The position numbers were made by a program, and so were the translations under genes. Of a stretch of DNA of 64,000 bases, positions 803 through 47,068 are shown piece by piece. How positions within the stretch are numbered: the first letter of the stretch is position 1; each line of letters opens with the position of its first letter. The DNA comes from Octopus vulgaris (lineage: Eukaryota), in NCBI GenBank assembly GCA_951406725.2, contig OX597821.1:111538001-111602000 (forward strand), given 5' to 3'. Under the pieces are notes generated by a model that was given only the letters and a program-made list of their open reading frames with translations, was not told the DNA's origin and made no database searches.

Positions 803-972
803 TAGTTGGAATTTACAAAAAAACCCACAAAAGATGAAGACAGGTGTAAAAACAACAAGTAGGTATATTAGTTTAACGCTAGGGAAGGTGACAAAGTATC
901 TTACGTTTCGAGCCTACGCCCTTCGACAGAAAGGAACACGAGAAAATAAACAGAGAGAATAAAAAAAAGCCT
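803..972 (-). mobile_element. Short (TA)n-adjacent repeat, family E, with a hammerhead-like motif
   Basis: Homologous to 20661-20845 (-) and 40526-40710 (+). Minus strand reads CTGTCGA-A-GGGC-gtag-GCTC-GAAACGTA. Confidence 0.7.
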
Positions 973-1487
973 TATTTAAAATTTGGCATGGTGGCAACAA
1001 AGCAACATACATGAAAAAGGAGAAACACACACACACACCCGCACACACACAATAGAGGTAGACATTGTCAAACCCTCATCAGCTGTCGACTAAGTATCAT
1101 CACAATTTTGATACCTTCCGACAATTTTCAATTTGCGGGTGTCAGTAATATAAGCTACTGGGGTACAAATGAGCGGGCATGAGAAGGCAAAATGGGACAA
1201 GCATTATAGCAAGAAAAAGATAAGGTCCCTTGACCGAACGGTAAATAAAGACGATTTAGGAGGAGGACTAGAAACTATATATATATATATATAACGAAAG
1301 AAATAAAGCCGTAACAGAAAAATAAATATTCCTATGTTTAATATAGAGAACGCTTCTGTGAGCAGTTCGCCGCGGCCATATTGTTGATATTCAAAATAAA
1401 AATTCTCTTTATTACAATAATGTGATAATTTCTGTCTAAATTGTAATCACAGAGATAAATAAGATTGGCTGAAGAAGTCGAAAAAGT

Positions 1488-1519
1488 CCGAACACGTTGG
1501 CTACCCTTCATCAGTCAGC
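1488..1519 (-). ncRNA. Degenerate hammerhead-like motif, possibly the 3' end of a Penelope-like remnant (~1293-1760)
   Basis: Minus strand CTGATGA-A-GG-gtag-CC-AACGTGT-T; the GA of GAAA is missing. Confidence 0.35.
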
Positions 1520-1859
1520 TTTAAAAGCAAAATGCAGCTTGCATCGTATTTGACATAAAAAATATTCTGTCATGTATGTTCAAGTCATCTCCTTTCCTTG
1601 TGTGTTTTTCTTAGATTTTGAACATTCACTAGAAAGGCTTCCGTCTATCAGGAGTTATCAACCATGTTTTACCTATGGATTTTTACCTTTGACTGCTAGG
1701 CTATTCTAGCCATTTGATGTTTTATTGTTTTATAGATGCTTCTATAGAAACTTCTTTCAAAATTCCTATTTTGTTTATCACATACTAACCTGTGTAGGTT
1801 GAACTATGTAAAATGTAAGAGAAAGAAACCTCACCGTTTCTTGCAATAAATACCAATAC

Positions 1860-2157
1860 TTCTTCTTCTTAGTCCTTCTTGCCCCTTGTGGAGTATAGGG
1901 CCGGTTTCATCGGCGTATAGGTTCCTCACCTGGACAGAACGCCGGTCCGTCGCAGGTGAGCTGCAAGATGCAGGAGGAAAGAGTGAAAGAAAGTTGTGGC
2001 GAAAGAGTCAGCAGAAGTTCACCATTACCTTCTACCGGAGCCTCGTGGAGCTTAGGTATTTCGTTCATAAACACACACATCGCCCGGTCTGAGATTCGAA
2101 CCCGCGATCCTTCGACCGCGAATCCGCTGCTCTAACCACTAGGCAATGTGCCTTCAC
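1860..2157 (-). mobile_element. tRNA-derived SINE, family C head with RTE-like 3' tail
   Basis: tRNA-like head (A/B boxes) near 2090-2157, (GAA)n tail, 12-bp TSD AAATACCAATAC at 1848-1859 and 2158-2169. Confidence 0.85.
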
Positions 2158-2599
2158 AAATACCAATACACACATCTAAACCAAAAATTTTTTCAGGGCT
2201 GTTTAAAATACTATTATGGCTCTCCTATTTACTATCTTGTTATGTGGACCCTCCCAAAATCTTACGTGGATCTCAGGGATCATATGGATTCTGGTTGAGG
2301 GCCACCGCTCTATCGACTCTCTACGCACTGCATGAATAAACTCAGGTTATCGAAGTATATTACATAAGTGAGAGCATATCATGTACATACATGGGCGTAC
2401 ACATACACAAAGTCACTTACGCAGGTGGACATGTAAACATACGCATGCGCATATGTTTAATTTCTCTTACAAATTAATTGGTTGCCTTCAACAATTTGTC
2501 ATTTAATGGTGCATTTAGCTCGTTAATCATATACTGAAATCGACTTTTCTTTATTCTCTATCTTTCTCTCTCTCTCTCTCCTGTTCCCTCATTATTTTC

Positions 2600-3170
2600 C
2601 TCTCTTCACACACCACACACACACACACAAACATATGCATAGACATATAAAAATGTATATGTGTAGTTTATATATACACATACGTATATATATGTGTGTG
2701 TGAGTTTGTGCGAATCTATGTGTATGTGTACATATATACACATATATATAAATATATATAACTATATATATCTGTAAATATATATATGTATATATATATA
2801 TACACACATATATATATATATATATATATATATATATCTGTAAATATATATATGTATATATATATATATATATAAATATACATATATATATATATATATA
2901 TATATATATATATATATATATATATACTCATATATATATGTATGTATGTATTATATACAAAAACATATTTGCATGTATCTACATAAGCATATATATATAT
3001 ATATATATATATAGAGAGAGAGAGAGAGAGAGATACCTATATATATATTATTTATATATATATATATATATATATATATATATATATACATACACATACA
3101 AACACGCACAAACATACACGCATACACATCTACATACGAACGTATATAGACATACACACAACCTTATATA
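2600..3170. repeat. Compound (TA)n/(CA)n/(GA)n microsatellite
   Basis: Directly visible. Similar blocks at 12850-13405, 17788-18345, 35660-36150, 44140-44394, 55530-56060 and 57960-58250. Confidence 0.95.
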
Positions 3171-3540
3171 TTAAATTCCTTTCCCATTTGCAAGATTCTT
3201 CATCGATTAAACGAATCTGCATTTACAGATATTTATTGTGCAAGTAGTAGTTATCTTTTCGAAATATATTCTGTTATTTATTCATTGAATATCTTCGTCA
3301 TTTAGATTCGCCATTTTCCTTTCCCCTCCTCCACTCTTTATTATCGAGTAAGCTGTATTATAACGATAAGAAACAATGTTAAGTCTTTAATTGTTTAGGT
3401 GAATGAAGCCATAGATATCACTGACAATGTTTCAATTTAAATGGCCTTATTATTGTTGTTATTATTATTATTATTATTATTATTGTTGTTGTTGTTGTTG
3501 TTGTTGTTATTATTATTATTATTACTATTATTATTATTAA

Positions 3541-44394: not shown

Positions 44395-44617
44395 AATAAT
44401 AATAAATATTAGGGAATGAATCCAAAATTACAGGGAAAAATCAGATTTAGGGTTAAATCCAATTTTATAGTAAAATATTATATAATATAATTCGAGACAA
44501 AACCACTATTTTAAAATCAAACAAGGTTTATTTAATTTATATTAAAATTTTATGTATTGATTAAGTCTTTCCTTGTTTGATTTTAAAATAGTGGTTTTGT
44601 CTCGAATTATATTATAT
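44395..44617. mobile_element. (TA)-flanked tail-plus-hairpin insert
   Basis: Perfect ~47-bp arms 44480-44526 and 44571-44617 with an ~85-bp one-sided tail. Confidence 0.7.
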
Positions 44618-44676
44618 ATATATATATATATATATATATATATATATATATATATATATATATATATATATATATG

Positions 44677-45700
44677 CCAGGCCATTGAGAATGAAATGTC
44701 CGATTTTGAACTGAAACTTTATTTTACTTTATCTCAACAAAAAGCAATGTAGTTAAAGTATGCACCTAAACTATCAACACAATTTTGCCATTTTATCGGT
44801 ACCTTATTTATGCCGAGAGCGAAGAATTCTGAAGAGCAAGAGTTGATAAAATCACGAAAGGTTGTTTTTGCATCTTCTTCAGATTTGAAGTTTTCCCTTG
44901 CAAAGAATTATCTAATGCCCGGCAAACATGATGGTCAGTTGGTGTAAGGTCTGGTGAATATGGTGGATAACAGTGTATTTCCAAAGTTCAGTTCCTGTAA
45001 CTTGAGTAGCGTTCTTTGTGCAACATGTGGTTGAGCGTTGTCTTGCAAGAGAACTGGCCTGTCTCTGTTGACCAATCTCAGTTGTTTAATTGCATGTTCA
45101 CTCATCATTTTATCCAGTTGGTTGATGTTTACATCCGTTGTAATTGACTTACCAGGTCTCATGGAGCTGTAGTGGATGGCACCAGCGATGGACTACCAAA
45201 CAGACATTATTAGCCTTTTTTGGTGAATATTCTCTTTTGGATTATGTTTTGGTACTTCGTCTCCATCCAACCACCGTGCGAGAACGCTTGCTATTGTTGC
45301 AAAGAATCCATTTTTCCTCACACCTAACAACACGAGGAAAAAATGGTTCGCTTTTATCCCGTGACAGCGAAGAACAACAAGTATCGAGACGACGTGTCAC
45401 TTGATGCTCGTTCAGTTCGTATGGTAACCACTTGTCCAGCTTCTTTACCTTGCCGATTTGTTTCAGATAGTCCAATATAGTTGGAATCGAAACCTCAATC
45501 CTTGCTGCTAACTCACGCGTGGTTTGAGATGTATCCGCTTCTACTACAGCTTCCAGCTCATCAATATCCACCTTGATCTCAGGTTTAGTACGGGTTTCAT
45601 TTTCATGAGTAAAGTCACCAGATCGGAACTTCTCAAACCATCGCCGTACAGTGTGCTCATTCGCCTCATCTTCACCAAACACCTCATTGACGTTTCGAAT
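44677..45700 (-). mobile_element. Decayed mariner transposon
   Basis: TVRRWFEKFRSGD, KKLDKWLPYEL (WVPHEL-like), CEEKWI, LLQDNAQPHVA; frameshifted. Confidence 0.9.
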
Positions 45701-46021
45701 TTTTTTTTATCTATCAAAGAGTTCACAAAATTTGATTTACAAGAGAAAACTCACAATATAATCAGACACCATGAATTGCATTTCGAAAAGTGATTATGTC
45801 AGGATAAAACAGAGTTAAAGACTGTCAAAGAATGACCCGATATATATGTATGTATGCATATATATATATATATATATATATATATATATATATATATATA
45901 TATATATGATATATATATATGTATATATATATATATATATATATATATATGTGTGTGTGTATGTATGTATGTATGTATGTATGTATGTATGTATGTATGT
46001 ATGTATGTATGTATGTTTGTA

Positions 46022-46203
46022 TGTATTGTCGTTCAATGCTCGAAATGAAGAGAAGATAGACAGCCGATAACTGATGAAGGGTCGTTCTTTATGTTACTTG
46101 TCCTATTTTCCATTTGTTTCTCTTGTTGTTTGCGTATAGAACTAATTTGTTTTCGTATTTCATGTTGTCTACTGTTGGTGACGTCCTGTACCCATACATG
46201 CAT
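46022..46203 (+). mobile_element. Family D 3' fragment
   Basis: GCTCGAAATG...AACTGATGAAGGG...CCTGTACCCATACATGCAT, homologous to 31740-31940. Confidence 0.65.
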
Positions 46204-46252
46204 ATATATATATATATATATATATATATATATATATATATATATATATATA

Positions 46253-46333
46253 TATGTTTCGAAATTAAGTTTTAGGAAAGCATAAGAATTAGATAATTAT
46301 GTCTTACCCAACTTCTTTTCTCATCAGCGTAGG
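46253..46333 (-). ncRNA. 5' part of a canonical type I hammerhead (3' part at 46744-46775, + strand)
   Basis: CCTACG-CTGATGA-GAAA...TTTC-GAAACATA on minus; GAAAC-ATAC-GT-C-CGTAGG on plus. Confidence 0.8.
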
Positions 46334-47068
46334 ACACTACAATTATGAATAATAGTATATTAAATTTCGAGGTACTAGAAGACATCATCTCAACTCAGTA
46401 TCAGAGGGAGCTAAAGCCGTTACCAGTATCACCAAATTCAAAGTGTGAATGAAAGTTTGTGTCACCAACCCCCTCCCACCAGCGTGCAGCCAAGACAAGA
46501 TGTTGTGGTCATTTACTGGGATGAAAAATGGTTATCAGTAATAATATAGGGTGAAATTAATTAATTTGGAATAATCATTAATTTCACCAAGTAGATTTCG
46601 GCATGTAAAAGCCTCATTCGAGGAAAGTTTAAGTAATACTAAGTAATTAAGGGTTTAGCAACGATTTGCCTCACCACACACCGAGTTTAGAAATAGCAGT
46701 CAAAGAGTTATAGCTATTCTTTCTACTAAAAGGGAGATCTCAGTAAAACTTAATTTCGAAACATACGTCCGTAGGTGACTTAAAATTGTATGATAGATTG
46801 CCGTCATTTCTTTCTCTCTTGCCTGTCTGTGTTTGCCTTTCAAGTGCTGTGGTTTTACTGAGATCTCCCTTTTAGTAGAAAGAATAGCTATAACTCTTTG
46901 ACTGCTATTTCTAAATTCGGTGTGTGGTGAGGCAAATCGTTGCTAAACCCTTAATTACTTAGTATTACTTAAACTTTCCTCGAATGAGGCTTTTACATGC
47001 CGAAATCTACTTGGTGAAATTAATGATTATTCCAAATTAATTAATTTCACCCTATATTATTACTGATA
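46253..47068. mobile_element. Young 5'-inverted hammerhead retroelement in (TA)n
   Basis: 217-bp inverted repeat 46533-46749 / 46852-47068 (1 mismatch); 22-bp inverted repeat 46253-46274 / 46744-46765. Confidence 0.8.

Follow-up and report, generated by a model that had tools for sequence, protein, structure and literature searches.

Hammerhead motifs at (TA)n tracts of an Octopus vulgaris locus as probable 3' ends of truncated Penelope-like elements

Described hammerhead-bearing elements and the octopus locus

Metazoan genomes carry thousands of minimal hammerhead ribozymes (min-HHR) in many divergent families, characterized by an extra nucleotide that separates position 9 from 10.1, a palindromic 15.2-16.2/loop 3 and a short helix I; they are mostly found as single motifs of truncated Penelope-like elements (PLEs), with opposite-strand pairs lying 100-700 bp apart (Cervera & De la Pena 2014, PMC4209133). 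PLEs prefer (TA)n targets, and their insertions display an inverted copy with 5' truncation and, on one side, a tail of 30-40 bp (Craig et al. 2021, PMC8557442). The supplement of the latter study tabulates 14 (TA)n-targeted families in Hydra, most of them with differing hammerheads, and lists for Octopus bimaculoides the element Hydra-1_Obim, which combines a hammerhead with a (TA)n target, in addition to three Octopus Naiads. The PLE tail has been traced to two internal starts of reverse transcription, and the hammerhead proved dispensable for PLE insertion in vitro (Frangieh et al., PMC11167929). Here we analyze a 64,000-nt stretch of the Octopus vulgaris genome (GenBank assembly GCA_951406725.2, contig OX597821.1, positions 111,538,001 to 111,602,000; hereafter the window, with coordinates counted from its first letter), in which an initial annotation had listed twelve hammerhead-like folds as a diverse, very high-copy ribozyme retroelement system. 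Literature searches on Penelope elements, hammerheads and retrozymes of octopus and other cephalopods listed no paper dedicated to octopus hammerheads; a 2026 repeat annotation of Octopus vulgaris counts Penelope families, and its main text uses the word "ribozyme" 0 times.

The motifs of the window are, with good probability, the 3' ends of several 5'-truncated PLE families that carry a minimal type I hammerhead near the end and were inserted in TA runs. We favor this reading because of the excess of motifs over shuffled sequence, the placement of element ends at TA junctions, the presence of fold-backs with one-sided tails and the copy number of one family, designated family A below. About half of the twelve listed motifs are real hammerhead-shaped sequences, and the count of twelve independent ribozymes is not upheld: three folds fall within family A, two are near-intact single motifs, one is split, another consists of half a motif only, a further three have decayed and two are unsupported. 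The observation is thus real but over-counted, and what it uncovered are new, unannotated families of a described kind. They do not constitute a new system, because divergent families, palindromic helix III and (TA)n-targeted hammerhead PLEs have all been published (PMC4209133, PMC8557442); of the original proposal, the PLE link and, for a single family, the high copy number survive.

The window motifs resemble the min-HHRs of PLEs in their type I topology, extra nucleotide, palindromic helix III, opposite-strand halves and division into unrelated families, but differ from them in three respects (PMC4209133). First, core position 6 is U in 3/3 copies of family A, a state not mentioned in the main text of that paper. 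Natural variants of the hammerhead core exist (PMC3088659), and a literature search for U in place of A at position 6 listed one paper, on twister. Second, helix II is 4 bp or long-looped, versus 7-8 bp in Schistosoma. Third, no flanking open reading frame (ORF) is seen for the window motifs. With the Hydra-clade PLEs they share the (TA)n preference, the hammerhead near the 3' end, a helix III of 3-4 bp and the inverted copy (PMC8557442). Moreover, many Hydra-clade families have T.T at the base of helix II, and the best motif of the window, at 17377, has the same layout. The distance from cleavage site to element end is 29-152 nt when worked out by hand from the published Hydra-clade table, which the window range of 32-159 nt matches. 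In contrast to that clade, helix III of family A is 1 bp, which is the min-HHR form, and a clade assignment would need the reverse transcriptase (RT).

Family A, fold-back inserts and their TA junctions

Three of the listed folds (897, 20763 and 40586) belong to one family, family A, with a mean column identity of 79%. Its copies, the hammerhead of the best-preserved one and an adjoining repeat are as follows.

40530..40789, plus strand: family A copy; pyrimidine-rich leader, hammerhead at 40586-40623, about 90 nt to an internal (TA)4, tail of about 75 nt
40586-40623, plus strand: near-intact minimal type I hammerhead; helix I 5 bp, helix II 4 bp, U6, extra A
805..968, minus strand: family A copy with its end at (TA)9; helix I damaged in the hammerhead at 897-934
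20662..20826, minus strand: family A copy ending at the common TA junction; hammerhead at 20763-20798 with damaged 5' side
40796..41025, plus strand: very high-copy repeat inserted within the tail of family A or directly behind it, with a 13-nt duplication on its flanks; we take it to be SINE-like (short interspersed element-like)

U6 is the one mismatch of family A to the type I core, and helix III of the 40586 hammerhead is the palindrome ACGT. Helix I is damaged in the other two copies; across all three, pairing stands at 100% in helix II and 73% in helix I. A common TA junction lies 90-103 nt past the predicted cleavage site in each copy. In the 40586 copy this TA run is internal and is followed by the tail, and therefore some of the TA belongs to the element itself.

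Copy number was gauged by aligning contigs from 4 of 24 listed sequencing runs to 40524-41067, a query whose first 71 letters, including core positions 3-6, are masked as repeat. In three runs guessed to be DNA and bearing three species labels, summed contig depth reaches 3.3, 4.2 and 2.5 million over the hammerhead bin of family A and 0.9-1.8 million over its tail, while the peak over the adjacent repeat is 54-130 million; the listed single contigs of one of the runs (X1) have depths of 26-81. Summed contig depth is not copy number, and the depth of a run guessed to be RNA (X12) is not counted as expression. We infer, roughly, thousands to tens of thousands of family A copies, about 20-40 times below the peak of the neighboring repeat; high copy number is supported for this family only. 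Of the A-, T- and transversion changes that reach 8% in run X1, none is placed within the motif; the flank is spared of such changes as the motif is, and therefore there is no sign of selection. The family A pattern had 0 matches in metagenome contigs. An extension of the family A tail past the inserted repeat to the (TA)19 at 41068 is unconfirmed: depth there is about 2,100 or less, and no joint skipping the repeat occurs among the matches listed. Around the high-copy repeat (40765-41038) a 13-nt word occurs three times, as target duplication plus tandem copy.

Four other hammerhead-bearing inserts are fold-backs tailed on one side only. They and the motifs within the first three are:

17223..17787: fold-back with 60-nt inverted ends (17223-17282 / 17626-17683) and a 104-nt tail to (TA)15
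17377..17449, minus strand: best-scoring hammerhead; exact core, helix I 5 bp, palindromic 8-nt helix III
21752..21943: fold-back between (TA)7 and (TA)13; half hammerhead, inverted arm, 95-nt tail
21793-21807, minus strand: 3' half of a hammerhead, within the preceding insert
34708..34920: fold-back with a hammerhead on the minus strand, a partial mirror at 34850-34890 on the plus strand and a 57-nt tail to (TA)10
34795-34835, minus strand: near-intact hammerhead with exact core, within the preceding insert
46253..47068: complex insert between (TA)26 and (TA)5; 217-nt inverted arms with 1 mismatch, 278-nt tail

This anatomy suggests a route by which such ends could arise. A full-length PLE elsewhere in the genome would supply the RT and a GIY-YIG endonuclease, which would nick (TA)n and permit target-primed reverse transcription into TA runs. 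Reverse transcription would start at either of two sites, about 30-45 or about 90-160 nt past the hammerhead, and the two starts would yield a short end and a tailed end, respectively; early termination together with an inverted second copy would produce the fold-backs. From the short or palindromic helix III and the published min-HHRs (PMC4209133), cleavage is predicted to be confined to dimers within tandem transcripts, and single genomic copies of the kind seen here would then be inert. The window copies, most of them decayed, would accordingly be fossils of differing age.

In the 21752 fold-back, the start of the inverted arm (21808-21848, plus strand) coincides with the predicted cleavage site, which is what copying of a cleaved RNA up to its 5' end would give. 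Perhaps this is also true of the 17223 fold-back (17498-17625, plus strand; weak), while it is not of the fold-back at 34765.

The insert at 46253-47068 invites a different explanation. Its single hammerhead is divided between the two strands, with the 5' half at 46253-46333 (minus) and the 3' half at 46744-46775 (plus). The halves share 22 exact letters and, when rejoined, give a 6-bp Watson-Crick helix I, whose 6-mer has a frequency of 1.1e-4, together with helix II of 4 bp and a GUC site. DNA downstream of the 46253 motif passes through the 217-nt arm into its own upstream DNA, reading as a permuted unit of about 583 nt with no ORF within it, of which the insert represents about 1.4 units, inverted. 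The arms differ at 1/217 letters and the insert is therefore young. A short, ORF-less permuted unit with one type I hammerhead is reminiscent of animal non-LTR (non-long terminal repeat) retrozymes (PMC7229834; 10.64898/2026.07.22.740005), which a preprint argues derive from PLEs. On these grounds some families might be short non-autonomous retrozyme-like units mobilized in trans by a PLE that targets (TA)n, with 46253-47068 as the footprint of a monomer of about 583 nt. We regard this as unlikely: the case is a single locus, no hammerhead-bearing tandem array occurs among the 150 of 173 tandem-repeat matches listed, monomers of 220-390 nt are described for retrozymes, and the minimum free energy fold of the rejoined motif retains helix I but loses helix II. 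Furthermore, the arm stops at TA where the other strand continues, as in an ordinary PLE partial tandem in which a 3' end is joined to the 5'-truncated next copy, and such a tandem explains the insert as well as a retrozyme-like circle does. A bolder combination of proposals is likewise doubtful, namely that family A is a multi-thousand-copy family of several related species whose core, with U fixed in place of the normally invariant A6, still cleaves as a dimer and that, in addition, 46253-47068 is the footprint of a circular retrozyme-like RNA of about 580 nt that a Penelope-like enzyme inserted into (TA)n, which would make it the first cephalopod retrozyme.

The favored PLE reading has consequences beyond this locus. 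It suggests that numerous short fold-backs classed as "unknown" repeats at the TA tracts of this genome are PLE ends, which would aid repeat annotation. If the U6 core were indeed fixed and active, the natural hammerhead consensus would widen, and a young high-copy family would be useful for learning whether transposition of PLEs requires their hammerheads.

Motif counts, TA proximity and chance

Four type I hammerhead descriptors were run on the window, namely a strict one, a first relaxed one, a log-odds scan tolerating one core mismatch and an extra nucleotide, and a variant that permits the unpaired base pair found in the published Hydra-clade table (PMC8557442). The first two both miss T.T at the base of helix II, and the first relaxed descriptor gives a weak excess, with 2 motifs at scores of at least 5 against a mean of 0.28 in 40 shuffles. 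With the log-odds scan, controlled by 100 local dinucleotide shuffles, 4 motifs score at least 24 (shuffle mean 0.14, maximum 3) and 3 at least 26 (mean 0.05, maximum 1). The Hydra-layout variant finds 4 motifs at 26 or above, against a mean of 0.09 and a count that 0/200 shuffles reach, and 5 at 24 or above, a count reached by 1/200. Both of these descriptors were tuned after the sites were known, and their figures lean in favor of the motifs. Below 22 real and shuffled counts overlap, and candidates scoring in that range are rejected as hammerheads, being inside the shuffle range.

The core CUGANGA...GAAA...UH closed by helix I is exact at 17377, at 34795 and in the rejoined 46253/46744 halves, and is lacking at 1488, 17521, 21793 and 46975. 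The extra nucleotide is present in family A and at 17377, 34795, 21398 and 41627, while the 46253 motif is without it. Most of the listed folds had been credited with a palindromic helix III; a strict palindrome is seen in 5 of the 12 sites (the three of family A, 17377 and 21793), and an imperfect one at 34795, 46253 and 20993. The claim that the families are mostly unrelated holds outside family A: when 18 motif neighborhoods were compared, strong alignment was confined to the family A trio and to a trio of half-core copies, family B (z 18-62), with every other pair at z of 5.8 or less. The remaining decayed motifs, and candidates that the initial annotation had missed, are:

20993..21075, plus strand: decayed hammerhead; core I exact, GAAA changed to GAAT, helix I 4 bp, near-palindromic helix III; 40 nt from (TA)20
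1488..1519, minus strand: decayed motif; core I exact plus an extra A, GAAA lost
21398..21428, minus strand: decayed motif; both cores and helix II kept, helix I lost
41627..41679, plus strand: missed candidate; helix I 6 bp, helix II weak, helix III strictly palindromic (ACCGGT), core with one mismatch; the nearest (TA)n of n at least 5 is 522 nt away
24285..24331, minus strand: missed candidate; exact core, helix I 4 bp, helix III 3 bp, weak helix II; 308 nt from the nearest such run
34193-34262, plus strand: weak missed candidate from the scan

Two listed folds on the plus strand are not supported. That at 17521..17582 has 2 core mismatches and is without helix II; possibly it represents the DNA downstream of 17377 in inverted and diverged form, with an alignment score reached by 16/1000 shuffles. 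The other, at 46975..47020, has 2 core mismatches, is without helix I and is the mirror arm of 46581-46626. A repeat at 24569, 33119, 41975 and 63460 is also rejected, as its core-like text scores 16, within the shuffle range. Near the 34708 insert, 34505-34595 (minus strand) has an exact core I followed by GAAA, with ACAUAUGU as its palindromic helix III and GUC as its site; helices I and II are broken, and it is possibly a further decayed hammerhead.

The window is rich in microsatellites: 23% of it is masked as short tandem repeats, and it holds 90 (TA)n runs of n at least 5, in 38 clusters. All sites had been said to lie near (TA)n, and 11 of the 12 do lie within 250 nt of such a run, compared with a background of 29%; among motifs picked by the scanner the figure is 2/6, no closer than chance (P=0.57). 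As the listed sites are TA-enriched and the scanner's picks are not, the site list is partly selected, and the TA closeness of the listed sites is partly a selection effect. Element ends give a sharper signal, 10 of 14 falling within 10 nt of (TA)n with n at least 3, against a background of 3.2%.

The strict type I descriptor finds 0 motifs in the 64-kb window. Rfam returns no hammerhead among the 150 of 410 window matches listed, nor in all 18 and 7 matches of two sub-regions; the matches listed are microsatellite-driven and of microRNA type only, and the hammerhead is presumably missed because the helices are short. Several observations, including the 2/6 given above, weigh against PLE ends as the source of these motifs. 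Double-sided compensatory changes in the family A helices number 0, in a sample of 3 copies that is too small to be informative. Several element ends were placed by eye with the TA positions known, and tails of 57-104 nt, with one of 278 nt, compare with a published 30-40 bp. In non-hammerhead repeat families, copies ending within 10 nt of TA number 7/9, 3/8, 1/7 and 1/8, the first of which counts against the reading, and both mariner-like elements of the window also adjoin TA; the (TA)n niche is thus not special to ribozyme elements but common to non-ribozyme repeats. A search of the supplement of Craig et al. with six short motifs of the window gave no match to any of them, although its breaks after every 70 nt might conceal some; the helix III motif of Hydra-1_Obim is absent from the window. 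Finally, no RT or GIY-YIG frame stands next to any motif among the frames scanned. PLE membership therefore rests on anatomy, and the absence of such frames is expected because the copies are truncated.

Some of these points also bear on the suggestion that the motifs are chance matches or hairpin by-products in AT-rich repeats, with TA proximity reflecting microsatellite density. The empty strict scan, the lack of a hammerhead among the Rfam matches, the overlap with shuffles below 22 and the 29% of unmasked intervals already within 250 nt of (TA)n with n at least 5 all speak for it. As a general explanation it is nevertheless very improbable, as the top motifs exceed 200/200 shuffles, three family A copies hold the motif at a fixed distance from the TA junction, and the split 46253 motif reconstitutes through its 22-letter overlap. 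Chance is already refuted for the top four to five motifs; it probably accounts for 17521 and 46975 and possibly for 34193.

Half-core, mariner-like and other repeats

Stop-to-stop frames other than microsatellite ones (47 of 170) were scanned for coding traces. They gave no RT or GIY-YIG match, in agreement with the earlier statement that no Penelope ORF is present, and yielded only a weak zf-RVT match of the long interspersed element (LINE) type and mariner-type helix-turn-helix pieces. Translations upstream of the motifs show no recognizable endonuclease end by eye. The half-core family and the mariner-like elements are:

31746..31983 (minus strand), 32504-32739 (minus strand) and 46021-46201 (plus strand): family B; core I CUGANGA with an extra A, no GAAA
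15729-16281: mariner-like element, internally deleted, a symmetric fold-back
20315-20661: mariner-like miniature, 347-nt palindrome located on the TA end of one family A copy
44700-45830: mariner-like fragment with an HTH_48 transposase match at 45242-45706

The three family B copies share a single TA-rich junction as their end and retain a candidate partner for helix I; the family could represent a PLE end with half a core or else some other structured RNA. It shares its half core with the Octopus Naiads (Naiad_Obim, Naiad_Ovul), which resemble the window elements in their (TA)n targets, inverted copies, tails and half-core motifs, but Naiads are without canonical hammerheads and family B is unlike the Naiad ends compared. 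Separately, 1070-1150 (minus strand) shows a by-eye likeness to the half-core 3' end of Naiad_Ovul/Naiad_Obim, with mostly transition differences.

That the fold-backs are miniature TA-targeting mariner-type DNA transposons with incidental hammerhead-like text is the least credible explanation of all: the window does contain TA-flanked mariner-like fold-backs (15729-16281, 20315-20661) and the HTH_48 fragment, but the two mariner-like elements are symmetric with TA within 3 nt on both sides, and for this reason were rejected as hammerhead elements, whereas the hammerhead fold-backs are tailed on one side by 57-278 nt and neither family A nor family B consists of fold-backs.

An AT-rich fold-back at 44396-44612, between two long (TA)n runs, has a one-sided tail of about 96 nt and no hammerhead core, and is possibly a hammerhead-less PLE end. 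The imperfect 106-nt fold-back at 53417-53522 is isolated, with no motif seen. A repeat family which we presume to be SINE-like occurs at 18704-18792, 25737-25896, 31445-31607, 32738-32867, 33818-33948, 37263-37391, 38428-38644 and 41108-41268; this is the family in which 7/9 copies have an end no more than 10 nt from TA, so that (TA)n may be its target as well. Lastly, 4334-4955 and 5375-5996 are 622-nt copies of a LINE-type fragment, 95% identical, with (TTA)n between them and the weak zf-RVT match.

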